Positions 16,377 through 34,773 of a DNA stretch of 58,513 bases are shown here, piece after piece. The DNA is from Candidatus Uhrbacteria bacterium (lineage in GTDB: Bacteria > Patescibacteriota > Patescibacteriia > UBA9934), in contig DOZH01000006.1 of assembly GCA_003518105.1 (NCBI GenBank), positions 1-58,513 of the forward strand, given 5' to 3'. How positions within the stretch are numbered: position 1 is the first letter of the stretch; each line of letters begins with the position of its first letter. Under the pieces are notes generated by a model that was not told where the DNA came from, searched no databases, and worked only from the letters and a program-made list of their open reading frames with translations. A program made the position numbers and the translations under genes.

Positions 16377-17687
16377 CTACGGTCTCAGTCTCTGTACATC
16401 TCGAGGAAAAATCGTGGCTTCTTTGACGTTCGCGAGGCCCAGGATGTTTTGGGTGAGGCGCTGGAGACCAATAGCAAAACCGCCTTCGGGTGGGATGCCG
16501 TACTTGTGCATGGTCAAATAGTCCTCAAAGTCGGCTGGGTTCAAGCCCTTCTCCACAATGCGGGCGAGCTGCTCGTCGTAGCGGTTAATGCGCATGCCGC
16601 CGGAAGTGATTTCACTCCCCCAACCGATGACGTCGAAAGTGAGGGTGTTGTTCGGGTCGGCCGGATCCACCTTGGCGTAGAACGGGCGCTTGCCTGGCGT
16701 CCAGTCGGTGACGAAGACAAAGCCGCAGTTGTGGTGCTTGGGTGCCCATTCTTTAGAGAGCCAACGCTCGGCGGCTGGTGAGAGATCTGGCTCCCCTGTT
16801 TCGTCGACTCCCCCTTCGTCGCGGTAGGCAGCGAGGGCGTCGGCTAGCTTGATGCGGGGGAAACGCTCGCCAAGTGGCGGGAGAACGGTTTCGAGGAGCT
16901 TGAGCTCGACGGCGCAATCACTCTGCACAGTAGCGACCATCTGGCGAATGGCAGCTTCTTCGATGTCCATCAACTCCTCGATGTTGTCGATAAAGCCAGC
17001 TTCAAACTCGAGCTGATTGAACTCGGTTAAGTGACGTGAGGTGGCGAACTTTTCGGCTCTAAACGAATAACTGAGACCGTAAACGCCTTCGTAGACGCCC
17101 ATGGTGATTTGCTTGTAGAGCTGGGCCGACTGGGTGAGTGTGGCTTCACGGCCGTAATAGTCGACCTTAAAGAACTCGGCGCCGCCTTCGCTAGCCGCAC
17201 CAGCCAGCACAGGGAAGAAAATTTCCGTGTAGCCTTGTGCTTCCATGAAAGCGCGATAACCGTGGACCAAAGCGGCCTGCACGCGGAAGATGGCGCGCTG
17301 CTTGGGGTGGCGGAGGGTGACCACGCGGTTGTCGAGTAAGGTATCTAGATTGACATCGAGCACTGGCTTGCCGATTTCTACTGGCACAACGTCGACGACA
17401 GGTGAGAGGACTTCGAGAGTCTCGACTTGCATTTCGACCTCCTTAACCAATGGGTCTTTGGACTTCTTTTCCACGATGAGGCCAGTGACGGCTACAACAG
17501 TCTCAACCTGTAAACCGTGGAGTTGCGTGAGCTGTTCGGCGTTAAGCACGGTTTGCGCGAGGCCAGAGCGATCGCGGATGATGGCAAAACCGAACTTGCT
17601 CATATCGCGGAGAGTGTTGAGCCAGCCTTTGATGGTGACGACTTCACCGAGTTTTGAGGGGAGGTCTTTGACGAGAGTTCTGGACAT
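16377..17687 (-). CDS. aspS: aspartyl-tRNA synthetase, short archaeal-like (probably non-discriminating) type
   Basis: OB fold, LTQSAQLYKQ, FRAEKFATSRHLTEF, EITSGGMR, PPEGGFAIGLQR. Confidence 0.88.
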   Translation of the reverse strand: MSRTLVKDLPSKLGEVVTIKGWLNTLRDMSKFGFAIIRDRSGLAQTVLNAEQLTQLHGLQVETVVAVTGLIVEKKSKDPLVKEVEMQVETLEVLSPVVDVVPVEIGKPVLDVNLDTLLDNRVVTLRHPKQRAIFRVQAALVHGYRAFMEAQGYTEIFFPVLAGAASEGGAEFFKVDYYGREATLTQSAQLYKQITMGVYEGVYGLSYSFRAEKFATSRHLTEFNQLEFEAGFIDNIEELMDIEEAAIRQMVATVQSDCAVELKLLETVLPPLGERFPRIKLADALAAYRDEGGVDETGEPDLSPAAERWLSKEWAPKHHNCGFVFVTDWTPGKRPFYAKVDPADPNNTLTFDVIGWGSEITSGGMRINRYDEQLARIVEKGLNPADFEDYLTMHKYGIPPEGGFAIGLQRLTQNILGLANVKEATIFPRDVQRLRP

Positions 17688-17743
17688 ATATTAGAAGTTA
17701 GTAGTTTGTAGTCGGTAGTTGGTAGTGGCGCCGTGAATAATAT

Positions 17744-19048
<1,305 letters not shown>

Positions 19049-19100
19049 AAATAATATTGACTTTTTAAGGTTTTATTGTTATGATGATCACATCACGAGG

Positions 19101-19142
19101 AAAAGAGTTCCTGAAGGGTTTCGTCCCGCTAGGAGCTCTTTT
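19101..19142 (-). terminator. hairpin overlapping the NYN stop codon
   Basis: AAAAGAGCTCCT...GGG-ACGAAA-CCC...AGGAACTCTTTT. Confidence 0.55.
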
Positions 19143-19662
19143 CATTTGTATGGTCATTTGTATGGTCATTTTTAGCGATTTTACTCTTAAGATCGTTCAT
19201 AAAGTGAAAGATGTTGTTTTCTGGTGGACAAAGTGTTTTCAAGAGAACGGAATGCTTTTGACGATTAGGAATGAGAACTTTTTCAAGCTTATTCTGTCCC
19301 ATGAGGTACTCGACAAGGCACCTGAAATCGCCGTCCCCCGTCACTATAACTGCTTTCTCATAATTCGAAAGTTCGATCATACTGTGCAGAACCAGCTCGG
19401 CATCGACGTTTCCTTTTATCGTTCCATCCTTTAATATCAGTGTCGGTTTAAAAATGCAGATAAATCCTGCTCGTTGTAAGAAATGATAAAGCTGTTCATT
19501 ACCTGTTTTATAGCCAATGAAAATAAAGGCCTGTGTCACTGAATATTTATCCTGGAGATATCGACGGAATTTTCGCATGTCCAAAATCCAGCCTTGGCTC
19601 TTGACCCCAAGATGCACATTTTGTGCATCGATAAATGCAAAGTTGTTCGGTTTTGGAGTCAT
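19129..19662 (-). CDS. NYN-domain (PIN-like) ribonuclease
   Basis: AFIDAQNV, KGNVDAELV, VIVTGDGDFRCL. Confidence 0.9.
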   Translation of the reverse strand: MTPKPNNFAFIDAQNVHLGVKSQGWILDMRKFRRYLQDKYSVTQAFIFIGYKTGNEQLYHFLQRAGFICIFKPTLILKDGTIKGNVDAELVLHSMIELSNYEKAVIVTGDGDFRCLVEYLMGQNKLEKVLIPNRQKHSVLLKTLCPPENNIFHFMNDLKSKIAKNDHTNDHTNEKSS

Positions 19663-19676
19663 ATTTGTATTATTCC

Positions 19677-19753
19677 AACTGTCCGATTATTTCGGACAGT
19701 TCATTTCAACTGGTGACAAATTGTCACCAGTTGGTCACAGAACGTGACCAACT
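19677..19753. repeat. cluster of three perfect palindromes upstream of NYN
   Basis: AACTGTCCGA/TCGGACAGTT (10 bp), CAACTGGTGACAA/TTGTCACCAGTTG (13 bp), CAGTTGGTCAC/GTGACCAACTG (11 bp). Confidence 0.8.
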
Positions 19754-19948
19754 GAAAATAAAAATTCACCCGTACAGAACAACCATCGATGATGATTATC
19801 TTGTAAGGGCGAATCTTAGATAAGATCGCGGTGCCACCTCACTTTAGGCTTTTCAGCAGTTGTGCGCGCTGGTCGTTAAGCAGCGAGAGGTGTGTCAGGC
19901 CTGGTTAGACTATAGCTGAAGAGGAGGACGCTGACAAGCGGTCGCGCT

Positions 19949-20400
19949 AAAACACAAAATCCCCAAAATGGGGATATGTGCCACAGTGAAGAGACTAGCG
20001 GGACCGCCATCGGATTCAGGCGATTGAAGTCGTTGCTCAGCCAGTTGAGGTTGACGTAGACCCGACCCTCGTGGCGGTAGACGTACCGGACCACGCGGTT
20101 GCCATCCGAGTTGCGAATCTGCGCACTACACCATCCAGGACACCGCCCCTCGAATAGCTCTCAGCTGCTCTTGAGGTTGAATATTATGTGCGATCTCGGA
20201 GCCCGGCACAGTGTGAGCAGTTCGCAAACCGCTCGGCAAGGGCTCACTAATCGACCAGTGTAGTGCACCGAGTAATCTTCATGTTAGAGATGGCCCAAGA
20301 GACGCTGTCGTCAACCGTAATCAACGCCATTCTGCCCAAGTGCGCGCACCGAGTCAGGTAGGGGGAAGCCGTAACCGCCCCCGTATTCACCCGACCTACC
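19949..20400 (-). ncRNA. putative stand-alone TR-containing DGR RNA
   Basis: Bounded by the target-gene terminator and a 3' hairpin with U-rich tail (19949-19980); stem 20268-20258/20131-20121 closes just 5' of TR. Confidence 0.55.
19998..20118 (-). repeat. DGR template repeat (TR)
   Basis: 121 bp, 110/121 identical to VR; all 11 mismatches are TR adenines; 7 AAY codons and no A at any third codon position. Confidence 0.95.
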
Positions 20401-20413
20401 ATCATGTTACCAC

Positions 20414-20463
20414 AAAAAACGAAATGAGGATCCCGACACAGCTTGCGCAATGTGGGATCCTCA
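20414..20463 (-). terminator. intrinsic terminator after the DGR target gene
   Basis: TGAGGATCCC/GGGATCCTCA 10-bp stem followed by TTTCGTTTTTT. Confidence 0.75.
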
Positions 20464-20548
20464 ACGGAACGGGTTGGCTCGGGCCTGCCAGCAGGGCCTA
20501 AGGGCTAAGGGTCTGAGAGCTAAGAGTCTCAGGCTCAGAGCAAAGGCT

Positions 20549-21094
20549 CTAAGGGCTTACTCGCGGGACCGCCATCGGATACAGGCGATAGAAGTCGTCG
20601 CTCAGCCAGTAGAGGTTGACGTAGACCCGACCCCCGTGGCGGTAGACGCACCGGACCACGCGGTCGCCACCCGAGCGGCGAAAGACCGAGCCGCAGATGA
20701 CGTACTTGCCCTCCCAGCTGTCCTGGAAGAGGGTCGGATCCGCCTCGATGCGATCGATGACGTGACTCGACAGGATGACCGCGTGCTCGAGGAGCATGGC
20801 CTCGCCGCCGACCACACCCTTATCAATCTGTGTGGGGCAGAGCTGAACGTCGATCTTGGTGAGGTCGACTAGACCACGGAACAGGTTCTCGGGCTGCTCG
20901 GCCTCGTCGTAGGTGCAGCCAGCCGGGATGTTGGGCCTGCCCGAGCAGTCCACCAACACGGGGTTGACCCTGCCGATGAGGTAGCGGCTGAGCGCGGGCT
21001 GCTGGGCGATGGCCGCCAGATTCTCCGAGGTGCCGCCTTCGGCTGCAAAGGAAGCGAGGAAGACGTCGACATCAGCGGGGTTGAAGTTGGTCAT
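20549..21094 (-). CDS. DGR target (variable) protein, probable C-terminal C-type-lectin-fold VR
   Basis: 181 aa, GGAG Shine-Dalgarno; VR encodes FRRSGGDRVVRCVYRHGGRVYVNLYWLSDDFYRLYPMAVP. Confidence 0.9.
   Translation of the reverse strand: MTNFNPADVDVFLASFAAEGGTSENLAAIAQQPALSRYLIGRVNPVLVDCSGRPNIPAGCTYDEAEQPENLFRGLVDLTKIDVQLCPTQIDKGVVGGEAMLLEHAVILSSHVIDRIEADPTLFQDSWEGKYVICGSVFRRSGGDRVVRCVYRHGGRVYVNLYWLSDDFYRLYPMAVPRVSP
20563..20683 (-). repeat. DGR variable repeat (VR) ending in the IMH
   Basis: Aligns ungapped to TR; shared GC-rich 3' end CCGATGGCGGTCCCGC. Confidence 0.95.
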
Positions 21095-22421: not shown

Positions 22422-22483
22422 ACAGAAATAAAGTTGGTAGTTTGTAGTAGGTAGTTGGTAGTTGGGAAGTAAAATTTGAGTAA

Positions 22484-32010: not shown

Positions 32011-33276
32011 CTAAACATCGTAGCTGCGCATGGTGAGCTGGGACTCCATCTGTTTGATGATGTCGATAACGACCGATACTACGATGATAACACTACTACC
32101 GCCAATCACGAAGTTAGCGTTATTTGTGATGCCTTGGACGAGAATTGGGAGAACGGCGATAACACCCAAGAAAGTGGCGCCAGTTAGGAGCAAACGGTTG
32201 GAAACCCACTCGAAGTACTTAGCAGTTGGCGCACCTGGGCGAATACCTGGGACGAAACCACCTTGCTTTTGGAGGTTCTCGGCAATGTCGGTTGGCTTGA
32301 AGACGATTGAGGCGTAGAAGTAGGTGAAAGCCACGACCAAAACGAAGTAGAAGATGCCGTAGAAGGTTTGGTTGGCGAAGAGCTGGATGATGAAGGTAGC
32401 AGCGTCGCGGATAACTTGCGTTCTAGCGTCGACGAAGAACTGGGCGATAAGTGGTGGCAAGACGACAATGGACAGCGAAAAAATGATAGGGATCATGCCG
32501 ACCATGTTGACGCGGAGTGGTAAGTGAGACTGGACCTTGGTCGAGCCGATACGAGCACCACGAGCGTATTGTACTGGGACGTTGCGCTGGCCTTCAGTGA
32601 TAACGATGACGCCGATCAAGGTGATCACGGCCAAGGCTAGGAAAACGAGCACGTTCATGAGCTGGCTCGAGTTGTAGGTAGCGACGGATTGACCAATGAA
32701 TGATGGGAGGCCAGCGATGATACCGGCGAAAATCATGAGGGACACACCGTTACCGATTTTGCGTTCGCTGATAAGTTCACCTAACCACATGAGGAAGATG
32801 GTACCAGCAACCATGGAGACCAAGGCGACGACCCATTCGAAACCAGTCAACTGAATGTTGACGCCGAAGGAAGTGCCTTGTTGACTAATGAGTTTAAGCA
32901 AGGCGAAACCCTGTAAGAGGGCCAACGGCACCGTGGCGACACGCGTCCAACGGTTGAGCTTTTGGCGACCTTGCTCTTCCTTTTGCATTTCTTCCATGCT
33001 CGGGAAAATCATACCGAGAAGCTGGAAGACGATGCTCGAGGTAATGTAAGGCGAGACACCCAGAGCGACAATGGAGAAGCTCATGAGTGTACCACCTGAA
33101 AAAACGTTCAACAGGCCCAAGAACTGGTTCCCGCTCAACAAGGCACTGAGGCCGTCTGTGTTGATACCAGGAACCGGAATATGAGCGGCAATACGGAACA
33201 AAGTCACCGCGAACAGCACGAAGAGCACACTCTGACGAATCTCTTTAGTTCGCCAGATACGGAGCAATGTTTCCAT
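32011..33276 (-). CDS. secY: preprotein translocase SecY
   Basis: SIVALGVSPYITSSI, IGNGVSLMIF, GGFVPGIRPG. Confidence 0.97.
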   Translation of the reverse strand: METLLRIWRTKEIRQSVLFVLFAVTLFRIAAHIPVPGINTDGLSALLSGNQFLGLLNVFSGGTLMSFSIVALGVSPYITSSIVFQLLGMIFPSMEEMQKEEQGRQKLNRWTRVATVPLALLQGFALLKLISQQGTSFGVNIQLTGFEWVVALVSMVAGTIFLMWLGELISERKIGNGVSLMIFAGIIAGLPSFIGQSVATYNSSQLMNVLVFLALAVITLIGVIVITEGQRNVPVQYARGARIGSTKVQSHLPLRVNMVGMIPIIFSLSIVVLPPLIAQFFVDARTQVIRDAATFIIQLFANQTFYGIFYFVLVVAFTYFYASIVFKPTDIAENLQKQGGFVPGIRPGAPTAKYFEWVSNRLLLTGATFLGVIAVLPILVQGITNNANFVIGGSSVIIVVSVVIDIIKQMESQLTMRSYDV

Positions 33277-33289
33277 ATAGAAAGAAATG

Positions 33290-33724
33290 TTATTCAACCT
33301 TACCGCCAGCAGCCACAATTTTGGCTACAGCCGACTCTGACACCAAACAACCCTTAACGACGACAGCGACAGCAATGTCACCTTGGCCCAAAACTTTGAC
33401 TGGAACCTTGGTGGTAGTGATGAGGCTCTTGTTGAGGAGAGTCTTTGGGGTGACCATCTCGCCCGCAATATACATGCGGCCAATGTCGGCCAAGTTAACC
33501 ACGACTGCCTTTGGAGCGAAGGAACGGAAACCGCGCAACTTTGGCGTTGACAAGATAAGCTTGCGCATACCGAGACGCTTCAAGTTACCGACACCGGAAC
33601 GGGAGGTCTGACCCTTTTGACCGCGACCTGCAGTGGTACCCTTACGACCGAGACCGCGACCATTGCGCTGGACAGTCTTACGAGCACCGAAAGCGGCCTG
33701 GATTGTGTTTAGAGAAATGGCCAT
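33290..33724 (-). CDS. rplO: 50S ribosomal protein L15
   Basis: GRGLGRKGTTAGRGQKGQTSRSG. Confidence 0.95.
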   Translation of the reverse strand: MAISLNTIQAAFGARKTVQRNGRGLGRKGTTAGRGQKGQTSRSGVGNLKRLGMRKLILSTPKLRGFRSFAPKAVVVNLADIGRMYIAGEMVTPKTLLNKSLITTTKVPVKVLGQGDIAVAVVVKGCLVSESAVAKIVAAGGKVE

Positions 33725-33729
33725 ATCCG

Positions 33730-34413
33730 TTATTTAGTCTCGGTGGTTACTGCTTCCACTACCTTAGGTGCCTTGGCGACGAATGGACGAAGAGCCTTCA
33801 GCGCAGCCATGACAGCTTTAGCGTTGTTAATTTTGTTGTTGGAACCCATGACCTTGGAGACAGCGTTAGGGACGCCAGCAAGTTCCAAGATAACACGGAT
33901 TGGACCACCACACTTAAGACCGGTACCTTGAGGAGCTGGCATCAGGAGGACGCGAGCGGCCGCAAACTTACGATCGACAATGTGAGGGATGGTTTCGTTG
34001 TGGAGTGGGATGGTGACCATGTCTTTCTTAGCCTTACGGAAGGCCTTCTCGACTGACATAGCGACGTCAGCGCCCTTAGCAACGCCCATACCAACGCGAC
34101 CACGACGGTCACCGATAATGAGACAGGCTCGAAAACGCATGCGCTTACCACCCTTGGTAACACGGGTCACGCGGGCAAGCTCCAAAATCTTTTGCTCGAA
34201 CTCGCGTGGTTCACGCTCTGGACGGCCACCGCCGGAACGACGATCACCACCTGCACCTGGACCACGTCCGCTACCGCCTTGGCCTCCTGGACCACGGCTA
34301 CCACCTTGTCCAGCGGCACCACCTGGAGCGCGTCCCCCACCGGTGCGAGTTGCACGTTGTGGACCACGGCCAGCTGGGGCTGGAACTGCTGCTGATTTGA
34401 TTGCTTCAGTCAT
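33730..34413 (-). CDS. rpsE: 30S ribosomal protein S5 (Gly/Arg-rich N-terminal extension)
   Basis: RVTRVTKGGKRMRF, PAPQGTG. Confidence 0.96.
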   Translation of the reverse strand: MTEAIKSAAVPAPAGRGPQRATRTGGGRAPGGAAGQGGSRGPGGQGGSGRGPGAGGDRRSGGGRPEREPREFEQKILELARVTRVTKGGKRMRFRACLIIGDRRGRVGMGVAKGADVAMSVEKAFRKAKKDMVTIPLHNETIPHIVDRKFAAARVLLMPAPQGTGLKCGGPIRVILELAGVPNAVSKVMGSNNKINNAKAVMAALKALRPFVAKAPKVVEAVTTETK

Positions 34414-34416
34414 AAT

Positions 34417-34773
34417 TTAGAATTCGAGGCCAGCGGCACGAGCGGCAACGGCCACTGCTTCCACACGACCATGGTAAAGGTATGGTCCGCGATCGAAGAC
34501 GACCTTGGTGACACCAGCGGCCTTGGCCTTGGTAGCAACTTCGGTACCGACGATAGCAGCGGACTCAAGTGGCTTCTTGTCGCCCTTGTTCTTCAAGTCT
34601 GAAGCGGCGGCTAGCGTCTTGCCAGTTTCGTCGTTAATGACCTGGGCGTACATGTGGGCGCCAGAACGGAAGACGGTCAAGCGTGGGCGTTCAGCGGACC
34701 CGCTAATCTTAGCACGAGTGCGGATGGCACGGCGCTTAGCAGCTGCTCGCTTTTTGAGAATTGGTTTTAACAT
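34417..34773 (-). CDS. rplR: 50S ribosomal protein L18
   Basis: [23 protein letters not shown]. Confidence 0.96.

Follow-up and report, generated by a model that had tools for sequence, protein, structure and literature searches.

To our knowledge, the mechanism of diversity-generating retroelements (DGRs) is known in structural detail from that of Bordetella phage BPP-1 alone, in which the enzyme is wrapped by an RNA segment located downstream of the template. The cDNA of retrons is primed in cis from an internal 2'-OH. The BPP-1 RNA is laid out as the avd 3' end, the TR and a 140-nt spacer, Sp (RT-10 motif; Weinberg et al. 2017 PMC5737381). Within the spacer, Sp47-56 is base-paired to TR117-129, A56 being the priming nucleotide. 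After a linker of two bases, Sp59-70 forms a stop duplex with the part of avd that immediately precedes the TR, at which the enzyme halts, and the spacer continues with a short stem-loop and unpaired adenosines (Handa et al. 2018 PMC6182149; bioRxiv 10.1101/2023.10.23.563531). Using a TR scan that took in 40 nt upstream and 100 nt downstream only, Handa et al. also recorded, in many DGRs including those of CPR bacteria, stem-loops immediately following the TR, which they took to be putative Avd-binding elements. As for gene order, 90% of CPR DGRs follow the B3 arrangement (target, TR, antisense avd, RT), one TR beside the RT serves several distant VRs in the remote-target DGRs of Treponema and Legionella, and a plasmid-borne avd-TR-brt functions in trans (Wu et al. 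2018 PMC5758913). The B3 gene order, the service of remote VRs by one TR and the BPP-1 RNP are already known; the template-RNA 5' domain, the pairing of the TR 3' flank and the RT-less cassettes of template RNA and target reported here are undescribed in the literature searched, a search that was not exhaustive, and in Rfam 15.

The cassette in the window and the complete DGRs of its genome

The window, meaning the whole stretch of DNA analysed (58,513 nt), carries on its minus strand a target gene with a VR, ~280 nt without a conserved ORF, a TR, and a hairpin followed by a U-tail, in that order. The copy on the window's contig is called C6 here, and C10, C8 and C1 are other contigs of the same genome, a bin of 800 kb in 13 contigs that is 85% complete. 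All coordinates of the cassette refer to the minus strand. The target gene (20549-21094) encodes 181 aa when read from ATG, the length also called in public assemblies; a TTG-started form of the ORF extends to 21157, and no Pfam domain was found in the product. Its 3' end is formed by the 124-nt VR (20559-20682), with the stop codon 10 nt beyond the VR end, and the 124-nt TR (19994-20117) repeats it 565 nt further downstream. The two repeats are 91% identical over 124 nt. Ten of the 11 mismatches replace a TR adenine by another base in the VR, and such A-specific mismatches are the signature of a DGR. The eleventh, close to where the repeat ends on its 3' side, exchanges T for G (GCTAGT in the TR, GCGAGT in the VR); it is identical in C10 and C8 and constitutes the IMH/IMH*-type difference by which DGR cassettes are recognized.

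Directly after the VR, an array of CT(T/C)NG words (20470-20548) is found in the whole clade of related DGRs described below. These words occur 4.4 times per 80 nt after the VR compared with 0.9 times in shuffled sequences, and they are spaced by 7-8 nt, with distances of 7, 8, 15 and 16 nt dominating in nearly all clade loci (L004-L083). The array is a possible target-recognition element, and it may be the clade's counterpart of the BPP-1 post-IMH hairpin or else a protein-binding array. It is followed by the terminator-like hairpin and T-run of the target gene (20414-20463), which is present just as the first-pass annotation of this DNA had described it. Its stem is formed by GAGGATCCC (20462-20454) and GGGATCCTC (20434-20426) ahead of the T-run, and an equivalent stands at the same position in the aligned loci.

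The surroundings of the cassette hold several further features. A promoter-like TTGTCA-17-TATAGT lies at 19909-19937 (-), just past the terminator of the TR-containing RNA, and is partly kept in L107, the ortholog discussed below. Overlapping inverted repeats (19709-19773, minus strand) precede an NYN-domain gene downstream of the TR unit (19662-19129, minus strand; Pfam E = 1e-13). Directly downstream of the cassette there are also tandem genes for class II aminoacyl-tRNA synthetases of the Asp/Asn type (16377-17687 and 17744-19048, minus strand; 436 and 434 aa), and a 43-nt direct repeat, 84% identical and rich in GTAGT/GGTAGT, occurs at two intergenic sites 4.7 kb apart (17695-17737 and 22431-22473).

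The genes for the enzymes were sought by profile and protein searches. With the RVT_1 profile no match was obtained anywhere in the 58.5-kb window, so that no RT stands next to this TR, and the genome gave three matches, on C10, C8 and C1 only. These RTs are intact ORFs of 338-353 aa, each beside an antisense avd, and avd was likewise found on C10, C8 and C1 only and not in the C6 cassette: a tblastn search with the three Avd proteins against 19000-20700 returned nothing better than E = 0.45. All three complete loci are ordered as target, ~400 nt of non-coding sequence, TR, avd on the opposite strand, and RT; on C10 the RT and avd genes occupy 33214-34275 and 34232-34615. They thus have architecture B3, which C6 lacks, its cassette ending after the TR. 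The DGR on C1 (G000:C1:10960-11499, L003), the fourth of the genome, has the same gene order as the others.

An RNA domain upstream of the TR

To place the sequence between target and TR in a wider context, an RT-based search was run with one genome per species. It yielded 80 Patescibacteria loci, about 70 of them with the same layout, and the 300 nt before the TR were aligned with MAFFT for 68 loci, C6 among them. The resulting consensus has seven helices comprising 46 pairs. Across the alignment 94.7% of the cells of these pairs are paired, compared with 70.0% in shuffles (none of 500 reached the observed value) and 37-52% when the partners were slid. Changes on both sides were seen in 42 of the 46 pairs, which answers the call of the first-pass annotation for a covariation check among homologs. 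Folding energy alone does not support the stems, since the 289-nt domain scored z = +0.33 relative to shuffled sequences. The earlier observation was that these ~280 nt contain no convincing ORF, and none is conserved among the 68 homologs: taking all frames of each domain, the longest run without a stop codon has a median of 59 aa. C6, C10 and C8 can be aligned 5' of the TR, with runs such as ATGAAGATTACTCGGTG identical in all three and the helices covarying, and the C1 region is weakly alignable.

The 3' half of the domain, from a primer-like strand through the elements P3, P4, an A-rich strand and P5 (see below), was built into a covariance model, R1. It matched 82 of 301 genomes and 74 of the 237 genera of the class. 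C6 scores 68.3 bits (20287-20118; E about 1e-11 to 1e-12), a match by construction because C6 belongs to the training set; the ortholog L107, which is outside that set, scores 59.8 bits. Against the 5' region of C1, which aligns weakly, the model gave no match at E<=1, and C1 may carry a divergent form of the RNA in which GAGTACT faces AGTACTT after the TR. A search of Rfam 15, another check that had been proposed, turned up no relevant family for the unit: at the gathering score only three tRNAs were detected in the whole window, and at E<=10 only chance snoRNA and gut-2 matches in 19800-20700. By the criteria of alignment and covariation, the 280 nt are the standard template-RNA 5' domain of the CPR/Patescibacteria DGR clade.

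The predicted C6 RNA of ~450 nt is composed of this 280-nt structured domain, the 124-nt TR and a 45-nt tail ending in a terminator hairpin. The proposal of a discrete, structured non-coding unit around the TR is borne out by the conserved helices and their covariation. The individual stems proposed from the single sequence required more revision. The first hairpin, P1 (20355-20400), contains helix 1 of the consensus, which is 95% paired with seven of nine pairs changed on both sides. Its outer stem GGTA/TACC (20400-20397 with 20360-20357) fits the clade consensus, but the last two pairs of the proposed GGTAGG/CCTACC stem compete with a covarying inner stem, GGGGG/CCCCC (20382-20378 with 20365-20361); an apical stem (20376-20373 with 20370-20367) is capped by a loop of the GGYUACGGY type. 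The second hairpin, P2 (20294-20344), accounts for helices 2-4 (85-95% paired, 16 of 16 pairs changed on both sides) and has a similar loop. In P2, 20329-20320 pairs with 20315-20306 inside a stem of 20344-20335 with 20301-20294, and it is this inner pairing that covariation favours over the suggested GGCGTTG/CAGCGTC stem, possible as the latter is in C6.

P2 is followed by an unpaired primer-like strand, CAUGAAGA (20276-20283; clade consensus AAAUGAAGA), and, 7 nt further on in C6 (5-6 nt in the consensus), by P3. This long-range stem, in the position of a stop duplex, joins 20257-20268 to 20121-20132 and is 96.6-96.8% paired, with both-side changes in 10 of 12 pairs. The first-pass annotation had recognized it as an 11-bp stem closing 2 nt before the TR; the stem is real, but it has 12 bp and ends 3 nt short of the TR. 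The loop of P3 encloses the short stem P4 (20191-20253; 20253-20250 with 20194-20191), which is helix 6 and 98% paired, then a conserved, unpaired A-rich strand, CACAUAAUAUUCA (20178-20190; consensus GAAUAcGAUaCA), and finally hairpin P5 (20145-20177; helix 7, 94% paired). A GTGAGC/GCTCAC hairpin (20247-20242 with 20218-20213) is indeed present within P4, but as an insertion seen in few loci, namely C6, L107 and partly C8. In the DGR on C10 (G000:C10:34768-34757, L001), TR/VR homology also covers ~10 nt of the 3' strand of P3, and the stop duplex there overlaps the template start.

Signals for transcription flank the RNA on both sides. An extended -10-like box, TGGTAACAT (20404-20412), aligns with TGnTAnAAT boxes of other loci; the TGgTAACAT motif noted earlier is present, and its position is conserved in the clade, with TGnTAnnnT in 39 of 68 loci and a TA-type hexamer in 60 of 68. 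The template RNA would start near 20400-20396. At the other end, the hairpin AUCCCCA/UGGGGAU (stem 19975-19959) and its U-tail (19949-19975), which had also been described correctly, form the predicted terminator of the template RNA. In 67 of 69 loci a GC-rich hairpin and T-tail stand 23-51 nt past the TR, versus 2 control windows 300 nt further downstream, and in complete DGRs this hairpin puts the RNA 3' end just before the antisense avd. The stem differs from that of L107 by two compensatory pairs and possibly doubles as a protein-binding stem-loop. Because the positions of promoter and terminator are both conserved, the template RNA is probably its own transcription unit, and 20412-19949 (-) can be read as a stand-alone DGR template-RNA gene.

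These results bear on two further explanations of the 280 nt. Because classical DGRs have their avd gene between the VR and the TR, a decayed avd or other pseudogene might be expected at this place. The tblastn search described above, proposed earlier as the test of this idea, detected no avd remnant, however, and the lack of a conserved frame, a substitution pattern that is that of RNA helices, and the intact avd that each complete locus of the genome carries elsewhere, antisense between TR and RT, leave a pseudogene with a negligible probability. The other explanation, that the domain stands in for Avd or for the genes that C6 is missing, is suggested by the absence of both avd and RT from the window, and the unit had at first been described as standing in place of avd and RT. 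That description did not hold, since the same domain lies beside an intact avd and an RT in C10, C8 and about 70 other CPR DGRs, and we consider such a substitution very improbable. The replacement of Avd by the 5' domain, one of the two roles first offered for it, is thus set aside, and the evidence is best explained by an RT being used in trans.

The primer-like strand, AAAUGAAGA, is the best-conserved unpaired strand of the domain, and in nearly all loci it is complementary to UCUUCAUUU just 3' of the TR. Where one partner diverges the other diverges with it, as in the combinations of AAUAAUAAA with UUUAUUAUU, CUUGG with CCAAG, and CAUACGA with UCGUAUG. In C6 the pairing involves TGAAGA (20281-20276) and TCTTCA (19992-19987), the latter, as UCUUCA, being the predicted binding site of the primer-like strand directly 3' of the TR (19987-19992). 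When duplex energies within each locus were compared with those of permuted partners, none of 10000 permutations matched the observed result, which also holds in the 31 loci with a divergent motif. In a fixed register, all nine pairs of the duplex have changed on both sides and 83% of cells are paired, the unpaired 17% reflecting in part register shifts of 1 nt, C6 included. Taken together with P3, the combined 21-pair structure is 90.9% paired, compared with 38-58% when slid. A single strand is paired to either end of the TR, with covariation in both duplexes.

By analogy with BPP-1, these elements suggest the following course of events. The RT-Avd complex would bind the template RNA, in which (A)AUGAAGA would pair with UCUUCA 3' of the TR in the fashion of a primer on a template. 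The cDNA would be primed in cis from the last nucleotide of the primer-like strand, predicted to be A20276, or else from the invariant A that follows three to four bases on, with C19993 as approximately the first template base, and the TR would be copied with errors at adenines until reverse transcription stopped at the 12-bp stem, before 20121. The cDNA would then replace the VR in the neighbouring target gene. For the C6 RNA, cis-priming as well as the priming nucleotide and the stop site are predictions. It is conceivable instead that the domain, though a genuine structure, has a part in stability, processing, regulation or localisation, and that priming depends on elements outside it, such as ones in the short 3' tail. 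Handa et al. count stem-loops after the TR as putative Avd-binding elements with CPR included, and the sequence of the 3' hairpin, CUCUCC/GGAGAG, is conserved in most loci. On the other hand, the tail is only ~45 nt long and mostly terminator, the order of elements in the domain equals that of the BPP-1 spacer, and one strand forms covarying pairings on both sides of the TR; we therefore regard a different function as rather doubtful.

Supply of enzymes and state of the RT-less copies

That C6 shares a cell with the RT-bearing contigs depends on the binning, but this co-residence is supported by the finding that the C6, C10 and C8 RNAs are each other's nearest relatives. The most likely source of RT and Avd is one of the paralogous complete DGRs on C10 or C8, which would act in trans. 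The C6 RNA is 62% identical to the C10 RNA and to the C8 RNA alike, an equal distance that favours neither RT.

A scan of metagenome contigs with the target protein detected no relative, and a protein homolog search gave only the identical protein and one relative at 66% identity. The latter is encoded on a public contig, L107, that represents an ortholog: the DNA is 80% identical over 1275 nt, and the shared stretch includes ~37 nt past the terminator that are not avd, after which the L107 contig ends. On the strength of this ~37-nt downstream flank, the orphan state is apparently older than the split of C6 and L107. At 10 non-A positions TR and VR are the same within each of the two loci, yet the two lineages differ. 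Such concerted changes indicate that sequence has moved between TR and VR after the split. Moreover, with the outer P1 stem left out of the comparison, all 10-11 substitutions between C6 and L107 at paired RNA positions leave the pairing intact, and three of these are double changes. About 18-20 concerted positions are also seen in another orphan pair, which occupies a syntenic site in two genera (G163/G229).

RT-less units are not confined to this genome. Among the R1 matches in other genomes, 27 of 101 had no downstream RT, and 20 of the 27 were inspected. Eight proved to be clean orphans with an A-biased TR/VR pair, seven had avd or RT remnants (avd fragments, truncated or frameshifted RTs), three stood at a contig edge and two had no clear A-biased TR/VR pair. 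The eight clean orphans are spread over seven genomes, and in four of these a complete DGR is present at another locus. Mismatches of the A type make up 79.9% of the total in orphans versus 94.4% in RT-linked loci (p = 6e-10).

These observations have to be weighed against the possibility that C6 is a dead relic, that is, a complete DGR which lost avd and RT by deletion and in which the A-only pattern predates the loss, reverse transcription having ended. The continuum of remnants is in keeping with such a history, as are the greater share of non-A mismatches in orphans as a class and the seven non-A TR/VR mismatches of L107, and these mismatches imply that some orphans are decaying. The exact target protein, including the VR, was also found on eight public contigs from at least three samples, with 1301 nt being 100% identical in three of the eight, so that these consensus sequences show no present-day variation of the VR; assemblies containing the locus include SRR5855242, SRR2177968/ERZ909576 and JGI 3300009031. 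However, C6 itself has no non-A TR/VR mismatch other than the IMH-type T/G despite 20% divergence from its orphan ortholog, and its promoter, terminator and every helix are intact. The 10 positions at which TR and VR changed together and the preservation of pairing by every substitution at a paired position argue for continued rewriting in trans, and the orphan state has been kept across two genera in the G163/G229 pair. A relic is accordingly unlikely, though it deserves to be kept in mind, and we judge it likely that C6 is a working satellite cassette served by RT and Avd in trans. The orphans as a class are best read as a mixture of working and decaying copies. For the locus as a whole, a stand-alone template-RNA gene of the CPR clade that obtains its enzymes in trans is the best explanation, and a probable one.

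Several additional features of the orphans were noted. The idea that an orphan RNA generally resembles the complete DGR of its own genome was considered and rejected: C6 is nearest to a complete DGR of its genome (C10), and the orphans of G217, G279, G039 and G163 are not. Orphans of different genera can be closer to each other than to the complete DGR of their own genome, as seen for G163:C48 (L093), G229:C21 (L095), G279:C13 (L089), G131:C1 (L090), G246:C6 (L102) and G039:C22 (L092). G229, a genome 95% complete, has no RT that could be found at all. A search for a conserved partner gene beside the orphan cassettes found none. At G003:C6:19210-23797 (L100), two template-RNA/target cassettes stand in tandem, 3.1 kb apart, before a single avd-RT, and the first of them is followed by an avd fragment only.

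A proposed permuted template RNA and its place among known systems

Combining these results, we lean, by a modest margin over an even chance, towards the view that the CPR/Patescibacteria DGRs, which form the most numerous clade, use a permuted, autonomous RNA of ~450 nt, and that RT-less satellites, some of which persist across genera, share RT-Avd in trans. In such a permuted RNA the primer strand, the stop-duplex strand and the protein-binding hairpins would all lie 5' of the template. Since the RNA gene would be autonomous, it could be duplicated together with its target gene as an RT-less satellite cassette, and several template/target modules would then depend in trans on a single RT-Avd pair. 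C6 and roughly 170 relatives point to a different RNA arrangement in the CPR clade, with a two-duplex core built from an upstream strand, and the permuted RNA makes testable predictions about the priming site, the stop site and compensatory mutants. The RT-less copy amounts to a natural experiment, suggesting that a template RNA and its target together make up a portable module used with a shared enzyme. If this is true, DGR loci and their targets would have to be counted differently, because searches anchored on the RT miss such cassettes. The arrangement might also offer a compact template-RNA design for engineered targeted mutagenesis.

The comparison with BPP-1 reveals the same parts in a different place. 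As in BPP-1, the divergence of TR and VR is adenine-specific, and a single bridging strand takes part in two neighbouring duplexes, pairing both with the template's 3' end and with the nucleotides that immediately precede the TR. The elements also come in the same order, namely primer strand, linker, stop-duplex strand, stem-loop and unpaired adenosines, and the stop duplexes are of similar size (11 bp in BPP-1, 12 bp in C6). Unlike in BPP-1, however, the bridging strand and the bulk of the folded RNA precede the TR rather than follow it, and keeping this order upstream of the TR corresponds to a circular permutation of avd-TR-Sp. There is also no 3' spacer of the BPP-1 type, as only a 45-nt tail follows the TR, and no sequence or Rfam similarity to the BPP-1 RNA was found. 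The primer-binding site of C6 is just outside the TR/VR homology whereas that of BPP-1 is inside the TR, and the linker is 5-7 nt in the C6 clade but 2 nt in BPP-1. Finally, with a putative promoter and a putative terminator to itself, the C6 RNA would be transcribed separately and not within an avd-TR-brt transcript.

Compared with the B3 DGRs of CPR bacteria (PMC5758913), which correspond to DGR clade 2 (Roux et al. 2021 PMC8144416), C6 has the same RNA domain and a small target protein without Pfam domains, and it differs in that its cassette contains neither avd nor RT. The likeness to remote-target DGRs is that RT and Avd would act away from their own locus. In the latter systems, though, it is the template that is shared, whereas C6 has its own TR-RNA gene and VR, and the enzyme would be the shared component. 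The msr-msd RNA of retrons provides a further parallel: it too is a stand-alone structured RNA with a priming element 5' of the template and with the template closed by long-range pairing. Cis-priming from an internal 2'-OH is established for the retron and would be predicted for the C6 RNA. In contrast to retrons, the resident RTs are of the DGR clade with Avd, as judged from their location beside bAvd-like genes and TR/VR pairs, and the product of reverse transcription would rewrite a gene by mutagenesis at adenines.
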